Source: Spirochaetia bacterium (GTDB lineage: Bacteria; Spirochaetota; Spirochaetia; UBA9216). From it: a stretch of DNA of 64,000 bases. The stretch covers positions 2,336,001 to 2,400,000 of the forward strand of contig OY776510.1 in assembly GCA_963675665.1 (NCBI GenBank), in the 5' to 3' direction. How positions within the stretch are numbered: the first letter of the stretch is position 1; the number at the start of each line of letters is the position of its first letter. The notes under the pieces are model-generated. The model was not told the origin of the DNA. It saw nothing but the letters and a program-made list of their open reading frames with translations, and ran no database searches. Of this stretch, positions 36,785 to 45,747 are shown piece by piece. The position numbers were made by a program, and so were the translations under genes.

Positions 36785-36814
36785 TTGACTTATCAATAAA
36801 AAGAAATGTATTCT
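36785..36814 (+). promoter_or_regulatory. Sigma70-type promoter of the B12 locus
   Basis: TTGACT-18 bp-TATTCT directly upstream of the riboswitch. Confidence 0.5.
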
Positions 36815-36828
36815 TAATTACTAATTAA

Positions 36829-36970
36829 CAGTATGTTTCAATGGAATGAAGGTGAGATTCCTTCGCGATCCCGTCACTGTGATAGGGAAGGTTACGCATA
36901 AGCCACTGGCGAAAAGCCGGGAAGGCGCAGAACCTGTAAAACCCTTAAGTCAGGAAACTTTGGCATACTG
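36829..36970 (+). ncRNA. Cobalamin riboswitch
   Basis: GGAA...GGTGAGATTCC...GCGATCCC...CACTGT...AGCCACTG...GGGAAGG...B12 box AAGTCAGGAAAC; closing stem CAGTATG/CATACTG; upstream of a TonB-receptor operon. Confidence 0.9.
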
Positions 36971-37084
36971 CAATATATTCAGACTTCGCGGACTGAGTCG
37001 GAATGTGCCTTATGCTGATAAAGAAACATTAAGGTTTATCCCCCGAACAGTTCCTCGAATGAAAGTTTTTTCATGGAGGAAATG

Positions 37085-37837
37085 ATGAAAAAAACACTAT
37101 CTATCTTGAGCGCCCTGGCAATCGCAGCGGTGCTTCTGGCGTCCCTGGCAGGATGCGGTCAGGTTCCGACACTTACCCTAAGTGATACGGAAATAACTAT
37201 CACAGAAAAAGAAGGGGCTTACCTTGCTGTCTCGGCAACCGCAGCAACAGGCCGGGACGATACTGTTACCGTAGCTTCTTCTGATGAGACTGTGGCTACT
37301 GCAACAGTCAATACTTCAGGCACCCAGGTTAATATTACGGCGGTAGAAGTCGGCACTGCAACAATTACAGTAACAAGCGCTTCCGGTGAAACTTCTTCCT
37401 GTGCTGTAACCGTTGAAGAAGGTATTGAGGTCTACGGAACATGGATAGATTCTTATGACGGAAAGAGAGTTATTACCAATAAGTACCTCATCTCATACAA
37501 CACGTCCTCGGATACAGAGTCCGCATATGTTTTTTCGATTGAGGAGTTTAATAACAGCGCGTGGAACGGCGGGGAGACAGGAGCCAATGATTGCGGGTAC
37601 GCGGTTTGCTTATGCATAGACCCTCCGTCATGGAATACTGACCAGAAAGGAACATATACGGTTTTCAGATGGCAGAACCTGGATACAAGCGGGAGCGCTA
37701 CAGTTTATGAATTTTCAGAGGGATCCCCTCCGGCATGGCCGAACGGTTACGAGGATTCTGCTGATGATGCCAAAGCAAATGCAACGGATGCGAACGGATG
37801 GTTCGGCTTTGGATATTCAGCCGGAACCCTGCAGTAA
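37085..37837 (+). CDS. Ig-like (Big_2) domain lipoprotein
   Basis: LAGC lipobox; SSDETVATATV...ITAVEVGTATITVT Ig-like motif; unassigned Trp/Gly-rich C-terminal domain. Confidence 0.8.
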   Translation: MKKTLSILSALAIAAVLLASLAGCGQVPTLTLSDTEITITEKEGAYLAVSATAATGRDDTVTVASSDETVATATVNTSGTQVNITAVEVGTATITVTSASGETSSCAVTVEEGIEVYGTWIDSYDGKRVITNKYLISYNTSSDTESAYVFSIEEFNNSAWNGGETGANDCGYAVCLCIDPPSWNTDQKGTYTVFRWQNLDTSGSATVYEFSEGSPPAWPNGYEDSADDAKANATDANGWFGFGYSAGTLQ

Positions 37838-37881
37838 ATAAAAACGGCGGGCTCCTGTTTTCAGGGGCTCGTTGCAATCTT

Positions 37882-38997
37882 ATGAAAATGAGTTTCAGCC
37901 GGCAAAATATTACGATTTTTACAAGTATACTCTCGGCAATACTGATATCCTGTTCAGGAATGAATCCCGACCCGCAGACGCAGGATACTCTTGTGTCAGG
38001 CGGCGGCACGCAGGATACAACATCCGATGCTCTTCCTGCTGGATATATTCCGTCAGGCTGGGTTGAACCTGTGCTTTTTTATAATCCGGATGAATATTTT
38101 CCCGCTGAGGTAACAGCTTATGTTCAGGCTCCCGGACAGTTTGCAAACGATTCGACTTACGGAATCAGCGGCAATACAGCCAAGCTTCTCGGGGTTCCTT
38201 CCGGAGGAGGTACGACGGCTCCCGACAACAGTTCCTTAATATCTCCGGGTATGGCAGGCGGTTCGGTGACGGTGAAATTTGAGCCGCCGATCGAGAATCA
38301 TGCCGACAATATCGGCGGTTATGATTTTATCGTTTTCGGAAATGCATACTGGTACGGCGGTAGCCCCTCAAACGGCTGCTGGCAGGAGCCGGGTGTTATC
38401 TGGGTAATGAAGGATCAGAACGGCAATTCGGATCCGGATGATACCTGGTACCTGATTCCGGGGTCACACCTGTCGGTTGCTGATTCGCCGCAGGATGTGA
38501 TTTACGATGATACTGATTCCGCTTATCCGCCGCCTGAAGACAAAAAATCCGCATGGTGGCCGGACGAAGTCTCTTCTCCTCTGACAATCAACGGCCAGAT
38601 GCTTCTGCCTGATGAGCTTTTCAGTTCAACCGGCGGCGGGGAAGCATGCTGGGGTTACGCCGACGTCACCCCGACATTGAAGCTGGGCGATATGTCGGGC
38701 GCTTCAGTTAGCAGCAGTACCGATAATTTGCTTAATGATGCTGAAGACTATCCCGAAATAGAGCCTGTTTATTTCTATACAACACCTGATACTCATGGCG
38801 ACGATAAAATTGATACGGGAACAGGCGGCGGCGACGCAATCGACATCAGCTGGGCCGTTGATCCTGATACCTTTATTTCAGCAGATCTGGATGAAATCAG
38901 CTGGATCAGGATTGCCGGGGCAACAACACTAACAGGCACTGTGGGTGAATTCTCTCCCGAGATTGACGGCGTTGCCAGGGTCAGGAGGACCGACTGA
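37882..38997 (+). CDS. Cell-surface lipoprotein resembling Bacteroidetes BtuH-type B12-binding proteins
   Basis: ILISC lipobox; YVQAPGQFAN, SPGMAGG, DFIVFGNA, EPGVIWVMKDQNGNSDPDDTWY, WGYAD, GGGDAIDISWAVD motifs of the Bacteroides cell-surface protein family. Confidence 0.7.
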   Translation: MKMSFSRQNITIFTSILSAILISCSGMNPDPQTQDTLVSGGGTQDTTSDALPAGYIPSGWVEPVLFYNPDEYFPAEVTAYVQAPGQFANDSTYGISGNTAKLLGVPSGGGTTAPDNSSLISPGMAGGSVTVKFEPPIENHADNIGGYDFIVFGNAYWYGGSPSNGCWQEPGVIWVMKDQNGNSDPDDTWYLIPGSHLSVADSPQDVIYDDTDSAYPPPEDKKSAWWPDEVSSPLTINGQMLLPDELFSSTGGGEACWGYADVTPTLKLGDMSGASVSSSTDNLLNDAEDYPEIEPVYFYTTPDTHGDDKIDTGTGGGDAIDISWAVDPDTFISADLDEISWIRIAGATTLTGTVGEFSPEIDGVARVRRTD

Positions 38998-41015
38998 TGA
39001 AAAAAATTACTTTCGTATTACTTTTGATACTATTTTCAGTTTTTATTACTTTTCTTCTGCCGGCGCAGGATCCCCGGGAACCGTCTGAAGCCGAAAAAAT
39101 CACCATAATTGCAGACTATGAACCTATGGATCCCGAAAATATATCGGCCCAGGTAACCGTAATAACATCCGATGAAATCAGGGCTGCAGCGCCCAGGACA
39201 GCTGCCGACATAATTGTGCCGGTGCTTGGGGTGCAGCTGAGCAGGTACGGCGGGGTTACGGCCCCTTCCGTTGTCTCAATACGGGGGTCTTCACCTGAGC
39301 AGGTGCTTGTTCTGGTGAACGGAAAGCGGTTGAACTCCGCCCAGGGCGGGGGCGTGGATTTCAACACAATAAACCCTGGTGATATTGAGCGCATCGAGAT
39401 TGTCCGGGGCGGCGGAAGCGCGCTGTTCGGAGAAAGCGCATTCGGCGGGGTAATAAACATAGTCACCAAAGACGGGTACGGAAAGGATCTGGACGGCTCA
39501 ATAGAATATGAGTTCGGTTCTTTTAATACCCATTCGGTGAGTGCTCAGGTTCTGGGAGGATTGGGAGAAACCAAAGCTTTTGATTATTTTCTGTCGGCGA
39601 AAGGAACATTTTCAGAGGGGACATATTCATATGAAGATGAACACGCCGAGGACGGAGAGAATCTCCGCGGGAATGCAGGAGGAATGTTAGGTGATTTATC
39701 CTTCAAGGCGGGCTGGGATATTGATAAAGAATCCGGTCTGAGGCTGTCTGTTTCCGGTCAGGGCCATGCTGATGAGAAGGGTGTTCCGGGCCTGACCGAA
39801 TTCCCGACTGAAACTGCTGAAATGAGCGATCAACGCTACCTTGGGCTGGTTACTTTTAATTATCTGGATAATCCGTTTGCCGGTATAACGCTTGATGTTT
39901 ACGGAGGCAGGCAGTACAGGCACTACACGGATCCCGCTTTTTACCTTGGCGCCGTGGATGATACCCATGACAATATTTCAGCAGGAGCAGATCTTTCACT
40001 TTCCAGGCAGGATGATTTATCGGCAGTTTTAACGGATACCTCGGCCGGGTACTCATACCGCCGTGATTACCTTGAATCTACCGGGCTTATTAAAACCGGG
40101 GGCGATGAAAGCGAGGGCAATGTTCAACGGCAGAGTCACAGCGCATTTTTCAGAAGCGAGTTCAATATTCTGCCTTTTAAAGATACAAAGACGGGACGGC
40201 TGATTTTATCCCCGTCAATCCGTTTTGACAGTCACAGGGTTGTTTACGCAGATGATGGTATTGATAAATTTGAATATGCCTTCAGCTGGAATGCCGGAGC
40301 GATGGTCCCCTTCTCCAGTGGAAAAGAGGTTATCCTGAAGGCAAATATCGGCACTGCATACCGGCTGCCGTCATTTGATGATCTGTTCTGGCCGGCTACG
40401 GCCTTCGCAGCCGGTAACCCGGGACTGCTGCCTGAAGAGGCTTTTATCTATGATATCGGGATTCTGATTCAGCCCTATGATTTCTTTTCTCTGGAACTTG
40501 TGCATTTCAGCCAGGACGTTACAAACCTTATTCAGTGGAACCCCGGGGCAAACGGACAATGGCAGCCGGAAAATATAGGAAAGGCCCTTCTTAACGGTTT
40601 TGAAGGGGAGGCAAAATTCCTGTTTCCGCTTTTTTGGGCTTCAGGCTACCTTGAAATGAAAGGAAACTATTCATATCTTTTTGCCAGGGATATGGTTGAA
40701 GGAAGTTCAACATACGGAAAACAGCTTCCGAGAAGGCCCTTCGAAAAAGGAAATGTGACAGGTACATTCAGCCATTTTGACGGACACAGCCTGCGGGTTG
40801 AAGGACGCTTTGTCGGTTTCAGGTATATCACGGCGCAGAATACAAAGTATCTGCCTTCCTGCTTCATTATAGACGCCGCAGGCCGTTTTCAATTTACTGA
40901 TTATCTTTCACTGACAGCATCATTGAAGAACCTTCTGAATGAATCCTATGTTGATATGAGAGAATATCCGGTGCCCGGACGGGAGTTCAGCATTGCCTGT
41001 TTGGTGAGTTTTTAG
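38997..41015 (+). CDS. btuB: TonB-dependent receptor, probable cobalamin transporter
   Basis: Plug SIRGSSPEQVLVLVNG, IERIEIVRGGGSALFG, GGVINIVT; NPGLLPE; C-terminal Phe; downstream of a cobalamin riboswitch. Confidence 0.88.
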   Translation: MKKITFVLLLILFSVFITFLLPAQDPREPSEAEKITIIADYEPMDPENISAQVTVITSDEIRAAAPRTAADIIVPVLGVQLSRYGGVTAPSVVSIRGSSPEQVLVLVNGKRLNSAQGGGVDFNTINPGDIERIEIVRGGGSALFGESAFGGVINIVTKDGYGKDLDGSIEYEFGSFNTHSVSAQVLGGLGETKAFDYFLSAKGTFSEGTYSYEDEHAEDGENLRGNAGGMLGDLSFKAGWDIDKESGLRLSVSGQGHADEKGVPGLTEFPTETAEMSDQRYLGLVTFNYLDNPFAGITLDVYGGRQYRHYTDPAFYLGAVDDTHDNISAGADLSLSRQDDLSAVLTDTSAGYSYRRDYLESTGLIKTGGDESEGNVQRQSHSAFFRSEFNILPFKDTKTGRLILSPSIRFDSHRVVYADDGIDKFEYAFSWNAGAMVPFSSGKEVILKANIGTAYRLPSFDDLFWPATAFAAGNPGLLPEEAFIYDIGILIQPYDFFSLELVHFSQDVTNLIQWNPGANGQWQPENIGKALLNGFEGEAKFLFPLFWASGYLEMKGNYSYLFARDMVEGSSTYGKQLPRRPFEKGNVTGTFSHFDGHSLRVEGRFVGFRYITAQNTKYLPSCFIIDAAGRFQFTDYLSLTASLKNLLNESYVDMREYPVPGREFSIACLVSF

Positions 41016-41021
41016 GTGGAA

Positions 41022-42098
41022 ATGATGAAGAAAAAAGTGGTTAAGTCCGCTGTTCTGCTGTCGGCTGTTTTTGTTGTATTTTCCTGTATGCGCGACCCGT
41101 ATGTTACGCCGTCCAGGCGTACTTTTCAGGACTTCGATAAAGAACTTTTTGTTATCAATACTCTTGCAGAAACTGTTTCGGTTATAAACGGTGATGACAC
41201 CAACGAGGTTTATTCTGATGTATTCACAACAGGAATGTGGCCGAACCATTGCCTTTTTCACAGGGGAAATATCTACTTCGTCAATTCGGGTGACAATAAT
41301 ATAACCGTTTACAACGAATCAACCTTTGAGTATTTGGGCGAGATTTATCTGGGCCCCGGTTCTAACCCCTGGATGGTAATTCAGAAAACCGGAACCGATA
41401 CAGCCTGGGTACCATGCTTTGCTTCAGGAGATATGGTCGTTGTCGATCTTGAATCACTTACTGCAGGGGACAGGATCCAGCTGGGAAACGGCCCCGAAGG
41501 CGGTACATATCAGGATGGAAAAGTCTATGTAGGCAATACCGCCTGGGACTACCAGTCTTTTGATTTCGGCGAGGGCACAGTCAGCGTTGTAGACGGCGGA
41601 ACAGGCGAACCGGTGAAAACCATAACCGTCGGAATAAATCCCCAGTCAGTTATACCGTTTCCTGATCTGCATGAAGTTCATGTTATATGCACCGGAAAAA
41701 ACGGCGGAGCAGGTTCGGACGACGGCAAAGTTATTGTCATAGATACATTGACTGATACGGTAACCGCTAATATTGAAATCGGCGGGTCTCCGGTGGGCGG
41801 CATCGGCGGAATAGACAGCATTGCAAACAGGGTTTATCTTTCAGGCGTCGGCGGCATCCTCTGCTATAACTATATAACAAAAGCCGTCATAAACGGTTCC
41901 GGAAATTATCTTCTTGAAGGACAGGACACGGACGGGGATTTTTTCTCCGGTCTGGTTGTAGATGAAGATTACCGGCGTCTTTATGTATGTTTCTTTTCGA
42001 ACGATTCGATTATTGAGATTGATCTTGAAAGTTTATCCCTTGTAAAGGAGATTGAAGGTTCAGATGGGCCGCAGTCTGTATATTTATACGAAGAATAA
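41022..42098 (+). CDS. YncE/BtuG-like beta-propeller lipoprotein
   Basis: VFSC lipobox; repeated blades (GSNPW, GNGPEG, GINPQS, GGSP, SDGPQS); adjacent to btuB. Confidence 0.8.
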   Translation: MMKKKVVKSAVLLSAVFVVFSCMRDPYVTPSRRTFQDFDKELFVINTLAETVSVINGDDTNEVYSDVFTTGMWPNHCLFHRGNIYFVNSGDNNITVYNESTFEYLGEIYLGPGSNPWMVIQKTGTDTAWVPCFASGDMVVVDLESLTAGDRIQLGNGPEGGTYQDGKVYVGNTAWDYQSFDFGEGTVSVVDGGTGEPVKTITVGINPQSVIPFPDLHEVHVICTGKNGGAGSDDGKVIVIDTLTDTVTANIEIGGSPVGGIGGIDSIANRVYLSGVGGILCYNYITKAVINGSGNYLLEGQDTDGDFFSGLVVDEDYRRLYVCFFSNDSIIEIDLESLSLVKEIEGSDGPQSVYLYEE

Positions 42099-42759
42099 AC
42101 TTCTTCTCTTTATAACGGCGTCTATTCTTATACACATAGGGATTTTCTCCGTCATAAAAATCAATCCCGGTTCGCAGGTTGAGGCGGAACCGATCCGTTA
42201 TACGGTAAATATGCGATCGATTAAAACTGAACCAATTGCCGTGAAATCTGAGCCTGAAGCGCCGCCGGATACACCTCGGCCGGAATCCCCCCCTGCCGAT
42301 CCTGTTATACAGGAAGCGGAAGTTCCGCCTGTAGAGGCTCCAGCGGAGGTTTCGGCACAGGCTCCTGCGCAGATTCAGACACCGTCCGTGAAATCCGTTT
42401 CTGAGGAAAGTCAGGCTGAAGCGGAAGCGGTGCCTGTTGTTGCGGAACAGGAAACTGTTGTGTCCCGGAACGACTCCGGTGTTATAAATTTTGAAGAACT
42501 TGATATTACAGGGGCAAAAATACCGAAACCCTCATACCCTGATATAGCGCGCCGCTGGGGACATGAGGGTACTGTGCTGATGGAGATAACCATTTCGGAA
42601 AACGGCGCTGTTTCCGATGCCGTAATCATTGAATCCAGCGGATACGCCGAGCTTGATAAAGCAGCACTGAAGGCTGTATTGAAAAAATGGAAATTTCCCG
42701 GGCAGGGAAGAGAAATTGTTACCCGGAAGGAGTTTGAGTTCAGGCTCAACAGGGATTAA
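42064..42759 (+). CDS. tonB: Energy transducer TonB
   Basis: TM with SILIH, Pro/Glu-rich linker, YPDIARRWGHEGTV...SSGYAELDKAA; start uncertain (42052 or 42064). Confidence 0.9.
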   Translation: MGRSLYIYTKNKLLLFITASILIHIGIFSVIKINPGSQVEAEPIRYTVNMRSIKTEPIAVKSEPEAPPDTPRPESPPADPVIQEAEVPPVEAPAEVSAQAPAQIQTPSVKSVSEESQAEAEAVPVVAEQETVVSRNDSGVINFEELDITGAKIPKPSYPDIARRWGHEGTVLMEITISENGAVSDAVIIESSGYAELDKAALKAVLKKWKFPGQGREIVTRKEFEFRLNRD

Positions 42760-42764
42760 TTTTT

Positions 42765-43733
42765 ATGAACGGGATCAAGCTGCAGGGAGTCTTTTTAATT
42801 TTGATATTTTTCTTTCACGGGTGCAGCGGGTATCAGAACCCTTCTACGGAAAGCGGCTTAACTCTTAATGCAACAGGGGCAGCCGATACGGATAATTCCG
42901 GGGATGATGACTGCAGCTGTGCAGAACTGACCCCGAAGTATGATCCGGAGCAGGACCCCAATAATGTTTATCTTGACATGTGCGTAGAAAGCGAATGGTT
43001 TCCGGGGATGGTGGGAGCTGAAAGGGCCGGCTGGCATGACGGCGGGGTAGCTGACGCCGATTGTGTTCCTGTTCAGAACAACGGGGCATTGGGTCCTCCC
43101 GGAGGGCTCGGAGCATATTCAAGCAGCGGAACATATACCTGTGTTGGAATAAACGGAAGTGCTGTCTGGCGTTTTAATGAAGATTATTATATCCATGACG
43201 GAGAAGGGGCTGATTTTGTCACATTCAGTTCCGTCTTTGCCTGGGGTTCTGTCTGTGACGGTCTCTGCTGCGAACTCTCCCATATCGAAGTATCCGAAGA
43301 TCTGGTTGAGTGGTATTACAACAGCGAAGAAGAATACGATGTTAACCCTGAACCTGATACCGACAACAGCGGGTACAGTTATTTCAATGTTAAAAATATG
43401 CATGGAAACAATCCTGTCTGGGCCAACAGTGAACTTAATGTTCAGGCCCAGGATATCGAAGAAATCAACGGGGTAAAAAAATGGGTGGACATTCCGGACG
43501 TATGTGTTTCCAGGTATTTCAAGCCCGGAGATCCGTATCTTGGAGGCGTCGAATTTGATCTTTCCGTGTTCAGATCAAAAGATGATGATTCACCCTGGCC
43601 TGCAGAAGGCCGGATGCGGTATTTAAGAATTATTGATGATTCGGAAATACTGGACGGACAGGATTATCTTAAAGACTGGTGCCTCGGGGCTAACATGATG
43701 TCGGCTATGGCCCTGAACTTTGCTCCACGATAA
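42765..43733 (+). CDS. Second cell-surface lipoprotein, distant relative of 37882-38997
   Basis: FHGC lipobox; ALGPPGG, VGINGS, DGEGADFVTF, IEVSED, GGVEFDLS, RYLRIID; Cys-rich. Confidence 0.65.
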   Translation: MNGIKLQGVFLILIFFFHGCSGYQNPSTESGLTLNATGAADTDNSGDDDCSCAELTPKYDPEQDPNNVYLDMCVESEWFPGMVGAERAGWHDGGVADADCVPVQNNGALGPPGGLGAYSSSGTYTCVGINGSAVWRFNEDYYIHDGEGADFVTFSSVFAWGSVCDGLCCELSHIEVSEDLVEWYYNSEEEYDVNPEPDTDNSGYSYFNVKNMHGNNPVWANSELNVQAQDIEEINGVKKWVDIPDVCVSRYFKPGDPYLGGVEFDLSVFRSKDDDSPWPAEGRMRYLRIIDDSEILDGQDYLKDWCLGANMMSAMALNFAPR

Positions 43734-44121
43734 AAGAAATGGTTGTGATGCCGGTCTTTCTGACAAGATCGGTTATTTCAATAACTGTTCCGAAGGACAG
43801 GTTTTTATCGCTCTGGATAAAAACCTCTTTAACTGCCTGCTGTTCCTTTATGCTGTTCAGTTCGGCGATTATTTCATCCTTCCTTAAAACCTTGTCGTTT
43901 AAAAGGATGGTTCCGTCCTTTTTAAGTGTAACTGTAAGTTCAACTTCAGGCTTATTGTCGCCGGTTTCAGCTTCAGGAAGATTAACTGTAATCGCGGGAA
44001 GCATCACTACCGAGGTCAGCAGGAAAAAGACCAGAAGGATAAAAACCATATCTATCATCGGGGTAAGATCAACGCTGTTCCGGCTGCCGGTGAGATCCTC
44101 TTCCTGGGAAAACCTGATCAT
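43705..44121 (-). CDS. exbD: Biopolymer transport protein ExbD
   Basis: DLTPMIDMVFILLVFF, VNLPEA, IQSDK. Confidence 0.93.
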   Translation of the reverse strand: MIRFSQEEDLTGSRNSVDLTPMIDMVFILLVFFLLTSVVMLPAITVNLPEAETGDNKPEVELTVTLKKDGTILLNDKVLRKDEIIAELNSIKEQQAVKEVFIQSDKNLSFGTVIEITDLVRKTGITTISFIVEQSSGP

Positions 44122-44723
44122 TTTTTCTCCTTCAGAATTGAAATGATTGACTCTGCATGGTCTTTCATTTCAAACGAAATCGATTTGATTTTGTTCTCGT
44201 ACAGGTGAAAAAAGATTATTGCCGGAATAGCTATGAAGAGTCCCGTAACGGTTGTAATCAGGGCTTCCCATATTCCGCCCGCAAGTTGCGACGGGTCCGC
44301 GGCGGTTTTTAATGAAGCTACTGTCTGAAAGGTTCCGGCAAGACCCAGAACTGTGCCCGAAAGCCCGACCATCGGGGATATTTTGCCTATTAGTTCCAGA
44401 AGGTGAAGATTTCCGGTAAGCATCTTCAGTTCCCTGGACCCGGCATGAGAAACAAGGGCTTCCAGTTCTTCTCTTGCCAGGTCCTGGTTTTTCAGGATTG
44501 TTTTTGCGATTTCAGGTACGGGCCCTTTCTGCATCCGGTATTCTTTCAGGGCGGAATCCGAACCGCTGCTTTTAAGAACGTTAAGAAGACTATCAAGTCT
44601 GGTTTCCGTAACCGATGATCTTCCGAGATAAACGCCGCGCTCAATTATTACTGCGATTGACAATACCGAGAAGAACAGCAGGGGGAACATCAGCGGTCCC
44701 CCTTTTAAAAACATTTCAACCAT
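44118..44723 (-). CDS. exbB: MotA/TolQ/ExbB proton channel protein
   Basis: GGPLMFPL, SPMVGLSGTVLG, AGGIWEALITTVTGL. Confidence 0.93.
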   Translation of the reverse strand: MVEMFLKGGPLMFPLLFFSVLSIAVIIERGVYLGRSSVTETRLDSLLNVLKSSGSDSALKEYRMQKGPVPEIAKTILKNQDLAREELEALVSHAGSRELKMLTGNLHLLELIGKISPMVGLSGTVLGLAGTFQTVASLKTAADPSQLAGGIWEALITTVTGLFIAIPAIIFFHLYENKIKSISFEMKDHAESIISILKEKK

Positions 44724-44766: not shown

Positions 44767-45747
44767 CTATTTCTTTACGATTTCAACTCTCCGGTTTTTA
44801 GCCGCGCCTTCGGCAGTATCATTTGAAGCAAGTGGACAGAGCGCTCCGACTCCGTGGGCTTCAAGCTGATCAGCGTCCACGCCGTATGAGTCGACAAGTC
44901 GCTTAATAACTGCTTGCGCTCTCTGTTTCGAAAGCTCAAGCCCCTCTTCAAAATCGCCAATTCCGGCAGCGTGCCCGACAATGAAGTATTTTTTATCGGG
45001 ATTATCATTGAAGAAATCGGCGATATTGGCAATGGCTGCTTCAGATTCGGTTTTTATGGTTGCTTTGTCCCCGTCAAAACGTATGTCGTATATAGCAATA
45101 TGGCCCGAGGCCGAAATATCGTCGGCAATACTTGCCGCGGAAACCAGCCCCGTTTCTACTGCCTCAACTTCAATAATATCCTGCGTAATAAGAGTATAGT
45201 TTTCTGTTTCAATCGCGTAGATTACTGCGTAGATATCTTTTCCGCTGTCATGACCTCTGGCGGCGATAAAACAGTGATTGTTCTGCCATGTGGGAAAACC
45301 GATTCCAAGGCCGAATTTCGAATTATTAAGCCCGTTATAGTATCCGCCTGCGTCATAATACTTTGCATGCCATGTATGAGGTCTGTCGGCAAAACCCAGC
45401 TCTTCGTCAGCCAGGGCAATCAATACCTCAAATCCGGCATTTTTAAATGCTGATTTATAATTATGAAGAACAAATGCTGAATTGTTGTCGGGAGAGGCCG
45501 TATACTGTGTTCGGATAACCCGGCCCTCAAGCGACATCGGGTTGTTCCAGTCTATGGTGCCGTTTTTTCCTACGGGCAGCAGGTACTTGTTCCATTTGGT
45601 TTCCTTGTAGAACTCGATAACAGATCCTTCAAATCTTGAGAGCAGCGGATAATCCTTTCCGCCCTCGATATCTTCAGTGCGTTGAGCATAAATCGGGGTC
45701 AGGAGTATAATTGCCACTGAAATTGATAATAAAACGATTTTTTTCAT
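44767..45747 (-). CDS. OmpA-family protein with DUF4892-like N-terminal domain
   Basis: DIEGGKDYPLLSRFEGS N-terminus; LSKQRAQAV...GVGALCP...KNRRVEIV OmpA_C. Confidence 0.88.
   Translation of the reverse strand: MKKIVLLSISVAIILLTPIYAQRTEDIEGGKDYPLLSRFEGSVIEFYKETKWNKYLLPVGKNGTIDWNNPMSLEGRVIRTQYTASPDNNSAFVLHNYKSAFKNAGFEVLIALADEELGFADRPHTWHAKYYDAGGYYNGLNNSKFGLGIGFPTWQNNHCFIAARGHDSGKDIYAVIYAIETENYTLITQDIIEVEAVETGLVSAASIADDISASGHIAIYDIRFDGDKATIKTESEAAIANIADFFNDNPDKKYFIVGHAAGIGDFEEGLELSKQRAQAVIKRLVDSYGVDADQLEAHGVGALCPLASNDTAEGAAKNRRVEIVKK

Follow-up and report, generated by a model that had tools for sequence, protein, structure and literature searches.

The analyzed window is a stretch of 64,000 nucleotides (nt) of a Spirochaetia genome (contig OY776510.1 of assembly GCA_963675665.1, positions 2,336,001 to 2,400,000 of the forward strand). 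It harbors a cobalamin riboswitch followed by six genes, here named P1 to P6, and a convergent exbBD pair, which probably make up a B12-repressed outer-membrane system for corrinoid capture and import of the BtuB–BtuG–BtuH type in a corrinoid-salvaging spirochaete. The riboswitch, the order of the genes, the homologies and folds of their products, and the repeated occurrence of the module after B12 riboswitches are observed; from these we infer corrinoid binding by each lipoprotein, their exposure on the surface, a complex between P3 and P4, and the direction in which the ligand would be handed over. By sequence and model comparison, the locus appears to represent Bacteroides-style corrinoid capture outside the Bacteroidota, with two new candidate components, namely P6 and the C-terminal barrel of P1 (P1C). 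The features are as follows, in window coordinates (aa, amino acids; Ig, immunoglobulin; ORF, open reading frame).

36785..36814, plus strand: promoter-like site, TTGACT, 18 nt, TATTCT (9/12 in a consensus scan), ending 2 nt before the riboswitch
36816..36982, plus strand: cobalamin riboswitch aptamer, RF00174 (70.3 bits, E 2.7e-15, full model 1-189)
37073..37837, plus strand: P1, lipoprotein of 254 aa with an Ig-like domain (Big_2, E 1.8e-6) and a calycin-like barrel; lipobox LAGC
37798..38997 (ORF; likely ATG at 37882), plus strand: P2, BtuH-type lipoprotein; lipobox LISC, motif APGQF
38997..41015, plus strand: P3, BtuB-like TonB-dependent receptor (Pfam Plug, 1.3e-23; TonB-dependent barrel, 5e-35)
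41016..42098, plus strand: P4, BtuG-like lipoprotein, a beta-propeller of the seven-blade YVTN/YncE type (TIGR02276, 4e-15); lipobox VFSC
42052..42759, plus strand: P5, TonB (TonB_C, 1.9e-17; tonB_Cterm, 2.3e-16)
42765..43733, plus strand: P6, lipoprotein of an undescribed family with a predicted BtuH-domain fold (AlphaFold2 and Foldseek); lipobox FHGC
43705..44121, minus strand: ExbD (PF02472, 8.4e-27)
44118..44723, minus strand: ExbB (PF01618, 3.7e-28)

The aptamer score clears the Rfam gathering score of 31.5 bits for RF00174; it was the sole Rfam match across the window and was recovered again in the whole-genome search. Because P1 to P6 overlap or are separated by gaps of no more than 45 nt, one transcription unit under one riboswitch is the simplest reading of this arrangement. 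A GGAGG at 37076-37080 is likely the ribosome-binding site for an ATG at 37082 or 37085. Promoter-like sites occur at least as often in shuffled sequence, and the site ahead of the aptamer draws its support from position alone. The products of P1, P2, P4, and P6 each open with a hydrophobic leader ending in the lipobox Cys, which together with their homologies predicts four surface lipoproteins. On the opposite strand, exbD and exbB converge on the operon, with exbD overlapping the 3′ end of P6 by 29 nt. An earlier note on this DNA, made from the letters alone, had proposed this riboswitch, six-gene order, and convergent exbBD; all were present within a few bases of where it had placed them.

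The same note had assigned P2 to the BtuH type from its APGQF motif, which sequence and profile searches confirmed. A single-sequence phmmer search of the Protein Data Bank (PDB) with P2 returned just two chains, 8BLW_B (residues 393-517, E 2.3e-15) and 7BIZ_A (224-354, E 6.9e-13). According to the available sections of the respective papers, chain 8BLW_B is BtuG1 carrying an extra H-domain (PMC10404256), and 7BIZ is BtuH2 (BT1956), composed of PKD/Ig domains and a C-terminal B12-binding domain (PMC8941943). A profile built from 43 of the P2 homologues matched the BtuG1 H-domain (8BLW_B 388-660) at 1.2e-53 and BtuH2 (7BIZ_A 213-492) at 4e-45, and the match spanned the entire B12-binding domain in two stretches. 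The available part of the BtuH2 paper lists Gln333, Asn399, His476, Tyr510, Trp511, and Trp577 as the side chains in contact with B12 and describes the phosphate/ribose region as a conserved surface patch (PMC8941943). In the P2 family alignment, Gln333 corresponds to the Q of APGQF and Asn399 to the N of an invariant GNA(F/Y), and both are kept in P2 (two of the six contacts) and belong to the phosphate/ribose region. P2 is an exported lipoprotein by its lipobox and, as expected for a BtuH, is encoded in a riboswitch-headed operon together with a btuB-like gene. In a large protein database, 127 homologues of P2 were found, chiefly in metagenome-assembled genomes (MAGs) of Spirochaetota and Planctomycetota, some with PKD, dockerin, or type IX secretion system tails; none of the 127 matched a Pfam model for the BtuH-type domain itself. 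P2 itself gave no usable match in Pfam or NCBIfam beyond a weak one to the LIC_13355 family lipoprotein (NCBIfam, E 0.02), a family that may be a distant relative of the BtuH fold.

The receptor P3 found its best NCBIfam match in the TonB-B12 model TIGR01779 (158.6 bits). When a profile was built from P3 and the receptors of related loci (15 sequences in all), the nearest PDB match was B. thetaiotaomicron BtuB1 (3.6e-62), followed by BtuB2 (3.2e-57), Cir (4e-57), and E. coli BtuB (about 1e-56). P3 is BtuB-like by its context and best match, not by a curated equivalog threshold. The start codon of P4 lies 1 nt past the P3 stop (41016 versus 41015), which is a btuG-like position. Searched against the PDB, a profile of 31 P4-family sequences matched every solved BtuG (5e-19 to 1e-7), namely BtuG1 at 5.4e-19 and 3.8e-18, BtuG3 at 1.3e-11, and BtuG2 at 2.9e-11 to 3e-9; Lp49 (9e-14), YncE (1.5e-9), and hydrazine synthase beta were also matched. 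Within this family, 19 of the 31 members carry PF21783 (YNCE-like) and nine carry DUF5074, which we take to be the Pfam family of BtuG. In 10 other loci (L008, L009, L015, L016, L018, L019, L021, L024, L025, and L029), the gene after the receptor likewise encodes a propeller of the P4 family. Hence P4 is likely BtuG-like in family, position, and lipoprotein nature, and would serve as the lid of P3.

The second surface lipoprotein of the earlier note, P6, proved to have the BtuH fold too. By sequence, P6 matched nothing in Pfam, NCBIfam, or the PDB; its 51 homologues (39-66% identity), from Spirochaetales, Myxococcota, and Desulfobacteraceae MAGs, are all unannotated and none has a Pfam domain. 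The AlphaFold2 model of P6, built with 35 sequences, reached a predicted local distance difference test score (pLDDT) of 89, with the core above 95, and a predicted template modeling score (pTM) of 0.83. In a Foldseek search against the PDB, the model had matches at E ≤ 1e-3 to just 8BLW_B and 7BIZ_B. Structural alignment (VIA-align) placed residues 67-318 of the model on BtuG1 393-660 with Z 13.0 and a root-mean-square deviation (rmsd) of 4.0 over 184 aligned residues, and on BtuH2 318-593 with Z 12.6 and rmsd 3.7 over 182; the next neighbors were PAPP-A (Z 9.1) and discoidin/CBM32 jelly-rolls (Z 7-8). Comparison of the two families by hhalign related P6 to P2 with 97.6% probability (E 3.5e-12, 107 columns), and their hidden Markov models (HMMs) weakly cross-matched each other's members (1e-10 to 1e-6 among 731 locus ORFs). 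P2 and P6 were rejected as recent paralogues, as BLASTP gave nothing (E 0.47) and the two are linked by profile and fold comparison only. In the alignment and hhalign comparison, the P6 family has NPGxxG / FPGMVG where APGQF would stand and F(A/S)W in place of GNAF; because both motifs are replaced, we file P6 as a new, separate family with the BtuH fold, and not as BtuH. As a separate observation, 10 of the 35 aligned members lack a lipobox and instead end in VPxPG, a hydrophobic stretch, and RR (P0011, P0013, P0015, P0020, P0021, P0024, P0025, P0027, P0031, and P0034), a tail that presumably resembles the PEP-CTERM sorting signal. The P6 domain thus seems, from these termini, to be anchored differently in different phyla.

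The barrel P1C comprises residues ~112-254 of P1 and has 63 cluster representatives at E ≤ 1e-3, most of them lipoproteins of 160-180 aa made of this domain alone; none of 44 members had a meaningful Pfam match. Its AlphaFold2 model (pLDDT 96.5) is an eight-stranded barrel, for which the best fold match was Tp0751 of T. pallidum (5JK2_A; Z 9.8, rmsd 3.1, 99 aligned), followed by Bacteroides lipocalin-like proteins (4GZV, Z 8.1) and then avidins. Foldseek found nothing in the PDB at E ≤ 1e-3 for P1C (E-values of about 0.1), and the best score in the ESM Atlas, 0.81, lay below noise level. Tp0751 (pallilysin) and the lipocalin-like proteins are, like P1C, small spirochaetal or Bacteroides lipoproteins with an eight-stranded barrel; they differ in sharing 6-9% identity with it and in having no known B12 link. 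The likeness to Tp0751 may reflect only the common barrel arrangement. As modeled, P1C is an undescribed calycin-like barrel, a generic small-ligand fold with nothing B12-specific about it, and it carries none of the known B12-contact residues. Calycin barrels are typical small-ligand binders.

To follow these genes beyond the window, 37 loci were gathered with the P6 alignment, 22 from species-representative genomes and 15 from metagenomes. A P3-like receptor adjoins P6 in 15 of the 22 genome loci. Riboswitches were counted where the sequence upstream of P6 extended for 700 nt or more (17 genome and 10 metagenome loci). In 13 of the 17 genome loci (L008, L009, L010, L014, L015, L016, L018, L021, and L023-L027), a cobalamin/AdoCbl riboswitch was found on the strand of P6, with no opposite-strand gene in between, and a riboswitch was found in four of the 10 metagenome loci (L034, L035, L037, and L038). 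The latter four repeat the order riboswitch, P1C, P6, receptor. The P1C HMM detected 15 ORFs in 14 loci (E 1e-28 to 1e-57), and in 13 of the 14 with upstream sequence P1C is the first gene after a B12 riboswitch, starting 8-142 nt past its end; of the two copies in L009, the first is the exception, and the copy in L036, cut at a contig end, was not assessable. The module that recurs in spirochaetes consists of the riboswitch, P1C, P6, the receptor, and the propeller; in the window and in L008, the operon also includes a BtuH-type gene and a tonB. Variations on this order were also observed: L009 and L010 have P1C, a BtuH-type gene, and P6, then exbDB, then the receptor; L025 places exbBD after the propeller; and L008 fuses an Ig-like region to the BtuH domain (485 aa), as in BtuH2. 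A convergent ExbD after P6 recurs in L008, L009, L010, and L042. Across 401 evenly sampled genomes of the phylum, full-length P6 occurred in two (that of the window, G000, and G183) and BtuH-type proteins at E ≤ 1e-20 in six; the system is therefore uncommon among sampled spirochaetes.

The host genome, a single contig of 5.15 Mb estimated as 96.4% complete, provided further context. Its spirochaetal identity, suspected in the earlier note, was borne out by the flagellar sheath protein FlaA, with three matches here versus none in 14 control genomes. That note had also remarked, correctly, that the window holds no btuFCD, and the genome search that it proposed located these genes 90 kb upstream of the P1–P6 locus, where btuF (Peripla_BP_2), btuC (FecCD), btuD (ABC), and cbiZ stand behind a second cobalamin riboswitch of 45 bits (genome 2282850-2286481; L006). 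This btuFCD-cbiZ cluster is the inner-membrane partner system of the locus. In all, the genome has four cobalamin riboswitch matches: these two, the strongest one (114.7 bits), which precedes cobT (DBI_PRT; 1102044-1103388, L005), and a sub-threshold one (26.1 bits) before a cluster of a corrinoid protein, a URO-D-type methyltransferase, CobW, and RACo (2067921-2073188, L007). No match to CbiC or CbiD, which mark de novo synthesis of the ring, was obtained in the genome at its given completeness; CbiB and CobS are present. A B12 dependence of the host is read from 13 matches to the B12-binding domain PF02310, 11 of them above the cut-off; MetH was considered as a consumer and set aside, having just a weak activation-domain match below cut-off (E 8.6e-4). 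Judged by its gene content, the host most likely uses corrinoids heavily and would import and remodel them, without making the ring.

Several observations weigh against this assignment. At the level of regulation, no terminator-like site was found between the aptamer end (36982) and the start of the P1 ORF (37073), the predicted fold of 36975-37095 was not distinctive (z -1.9), and neither a clear terminator nor a hairpin sequestering the ribosome-binding site emerged as the expression platform. The exbBD genes lie on the minus strand, on which the Rfam scan of the window found no riboswitch. No riboswitch was found upstream of P6 in four of the 17 genome loci (L012, L013, L017, and L022) and in six of the 10 metagenome loci. 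P3 stays far below the NCBIfam cut-offs for BtuB, with 158.6 bits versus 599.7 for TIGR01779 and 119 versus 836 for NF007926. In P2, the four contacts corresponding to His476, Tyr510, Trp511, and Trp577, located in variable loops of the family alignment, have no like residues. Given the homology over the full domain, the two contacts kept, and the four that are not, P2 truly belongs, by sequence, to the BtuH domain family, with a pocket that differs in part. The remaining points concern P6, P1C, and P4, and they feed into the alternatives considered next.

The alternative that holds up best, although we consider it unlikely, is that P3 and TonB–ExbBD do import corrinoids and that P1, P6, and possibly P4 are co-regulated envelope proteins that bind none, having a structural role, a vesicle-related one like BtuL, or no binding like BtuK2 of B. 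thetaiotaomicron. It is favored by P6, which lacks the equivalents of both Gln333 and Asn399 and keeps none of the six BtuH2 contacts, and by the generic calycin fold of P1C, whereas the riboswitch-proximal position of P1C in 13 of the 14 assessable cases, with P6 following, the ligand-binding habit of calycin barrels, and the fold and remote homology that P6 shares with a proven B12-binding domain argue for binding. Position behind a riboswitch does not settle the matter by itself: in the available part of a recent review, BtuL and BtuK2 are riboswitch-co-regulated, yet bind no cobamide, and co-regulation is therefore no proof of binding (PMC13616437).

Slightly less probable again is that P4 is an ordinary YVTN/YncE propeller (e.g., a periplasmic, DNA- or ligand-binding YncE-like protein) that neighbors the receptor without acting as a BtuG-type lid. 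The top PDB match of the P4 profile was the archaeal S-layer YVTN propeller 1L0Q (4.2e-37), ahead of BtuG1, with YncE and Lp49 matched as well, and the P4 of the window has no Pfam match of its own, including to PF21783 and DUF5074. The available part of a preprint gives Arg141, Arg244, and Glu249 as B12 contacts of BtuG1 and reports that BtuG1 and BtuG2 share just ~60% of their contacts with each other (bioRxiv 10.1101/2024.02.16.580637). In the P4 family these three positions align with W, T, and D, so the BtuG1 contacts are not conserved; they sit in loops that are nearly invariant within the family, the W belonging to a nearly invariant NPW. On the other side stand the matches to all BtuG1, BtuG2, and BtuG3 structures, the lipobox, the placement after the receptor in the 10 other loci, and DUF5074 (presumably BtuG's own family) in nine of the 31 members. 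P4 matches every solved BtuG and is positioned as btuG is, and it is equally a generic YVTN propeller, so that its membership in BtuG proper is likely and not certain.

The last alternative, a very improbable one, is that P3 imports something other than complete corrinoids, such as chelated cobalt or nickel, haem or another tetrapyrrole, or a precursor of the lower ligand, and that the lipoproteins capture this substrate. In its favor, P3 scores against the haem-receptor (136.5 bits) and siderophore-receptor (136.1) models of NCBIfam come near that of the B12 model, all below cut-off, Cir is on a par with BtuB among the PDB matches, and most corrin-ring contacts of BtuH2 are not kept in P2. 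Against it, a genome without CbiC and CbiD would have little use for cobalt imported for de novo synthesis, P3 matches the Bacteroides BtuB1 and BtuB2 ahead of all other PDB entries, P2 and P6 are related only to a B12-binding domain, and a sister riboswitch heads btuFCD-cbiZ.

A B12-repressed corrinoid capture system is thus the reading carried forward, and its closest counterpart is locus 1 of B. thetaiotaomicron, BtuB1-BtuG1(BtuGH)-BtuH1 (cryo-EM structure 8BLW), which, in the available sections of its description, shares the riboswitch operon, the receptor followed by a propeller lipoprotein, and the BtuH domain (PMC10404256). For P2, P3, and P4, chains of the 8BLW complex were the best or near-best characterized PDB matches. 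The two loci differ in that the propeller and the BtuH domain are separate genes here and fused in BtuG1, the operon includes tonB and adjoins exbBD, btuFCD lies elsewhere, and no BtuJ or BtuK types occur while two extra families, P6 and P1C, do. They also differ in the spirochaete host, with a surface-export route for lipoproteins unlike that of Bacteroidota, and in the low identities (~10-15% for P6 in structural alignments). Compared with BtuH2, P2 covers the whole C-terminal B12-binding domain and keeps APGQF/GNAF, and P6 shares the fold, but P2 has no PKD/Ig domains, the Ig-like domain of the window being located on P1 instead. The E. coli pathway of BtuB, TonB-ExbBD, and BtuFCD likewise has a Plug-and-barrel receptor, riboswitch control, and BtuF-BtuCD; it differs in having no surface lipoproteins, scattered genes, and no co-transcription with tonB.

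None of P1, P2, P4, and P6 matched the Pfam model for DUF4465, which we take to be of the PF14717 type, at E ≤ 10; P2, P4, and P6 matched no Pfam family whatever at this level. BtuJ, the DUF4465 protein, is described in the available part of its paper as an exported B12 binder of riboswitch loci in several phyla, including Spirochaetota, and thus offers a functional analogy for P1C and P6 (PMC13398666). The folds differ, as BtuJ is an augmented jelly-roll and P1C an eight-stranded calycin-type barrel. In the founding paper BtuG was called exclusive to Bacteroidetes (PMC6143338), BtuH homologues outside this phylum are noted for three Firmicutes only in the available part of the BtuH2 paper (PMC8941943), and a review of 2026 treats the relay, in the sections available, as a Bacteroides speciality (PMC13616437). 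Our literature search, limited to open-access papers, found no description of BtuG/BtuH systems in spirochaetes.

Most likely, the system would work like the "pedal-bin" relay of Bacteroides presented in the available part of that review (PMC13616437). Under low intracellular coenzyme B12, the riboswitch would permit expression of the six genes, and the exported lipoproteins would capture corrinoids: P2 as the BtuH-type binder and, as also predicted, P6 with its divergent BtuH fold and P1 with a calycin barrel on an Ig stalk. P4, predicted to cap P3, would take up the ligand and release it into the BtuB-like gate, and the passage through P3 would be energized by the TonB P5 together with the adjacent ExbB-ExbD. 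The periplasmic cargo would then pass to BtuF-BtuCD, encoded under the second riboswitch, and CobT, under the third, with CbiB and CobS would serve in corrinoid remodeling.

If this reading holds, a complete riboswitch-BtuH-BtuB-BtuG-TonB operon in a free-living spirochaete would mean that the strategy is broader than Bacteroides. Spirochaetales MAGs contain the operon as well, and portions of it turn up in Myxococcota and Desulfobacterota. A concrete ligand hypothesis is also gained for two unannotated families, P6 (51 clusters) and P1C (63 representatives). B. thetaiotaomicron has eleven TonB homologues, and which of them energizes BtuB is still open; with tonB and exbBD beside a btuB-like gene, the present locus would therefore be a simple system in which to study how a BtuB with its lid is energized. 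A bolder proposal, to which we give somewhat less than an even chance, is that P6 and P1C are two new corrinoid-binding families that, with P2 and P4, would pass the ligand outside the cell in four steps to one BtuB, the whole being an ancient and widely exchanged module and not an invention of the Bacteroidota. In that case, the BtuH fold would have been re-tooled in P6 to bind through another surface, P1C would be the first bacterial binder of B12 (or cobinamide) of the calycin/lipocalin type, and the relay would exist in spirochaetes and, as variants anchored by PEP-CTERM, in Myxococcota and Desulfobacterota.

Some observations at the margin of this system are also recorded. A tblastn search of the genome with P5 returned P5 alone at E < 1e-4; given the short domain, other TonB proteins may escape such a search. 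P3 was considered as the only TonB-dependent receptor of the genome and this was rejected: tblastn found no other P3-like protein, and the Plug model found a weak second ORF. This Plug-domain ORF (genome 4262287-4265156; 837 aa, 25.5 bits) lies beside a paralogous ExbB/ExbD pair and may belong to a second, very divergent TonB-dependent system. Directly upstream of exbB in the window, an OmpA-family protein is encoded (44767-45747, minus strand; 326 aa, signal peptide, C-terminal OmpA domain at 6.4e-16), whose gene may be co-transcribed with exbBD. In the phylum sample, about 20 genomes (~4.4 Mb) of one genus (f20/g37) weakly match the core of the BtuH profile (positions 107-161) at E 1e-6 to 1e-8, in ORFs of ~280-330 aa.

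Among the loci gathered with P6, a Spirochaetes MAG (L014:2526-10774) has a riboswitch, three large repeat-rich lipoproteins (551, 435, and 476 aa), and two tandem copies of P6, an accessory set larger than that of the window. Some other P6 loci, from Desulfobacteraceae and other MAGs (L017:2914-9684 and L029:4895-5090), hold two further riboswitches, each before another TonB-dependent receptor, and by analogy look like multi-receptor B12 loci, as in Bacteroides. In the metagenome locus L042:1-1950, TonB, ExbD, and ExbB are 76-83% identical to those of the window, and only the last ~54 residues of P6 were matched between tonB and exbD, which may reflect a deletion or a masked stretch.

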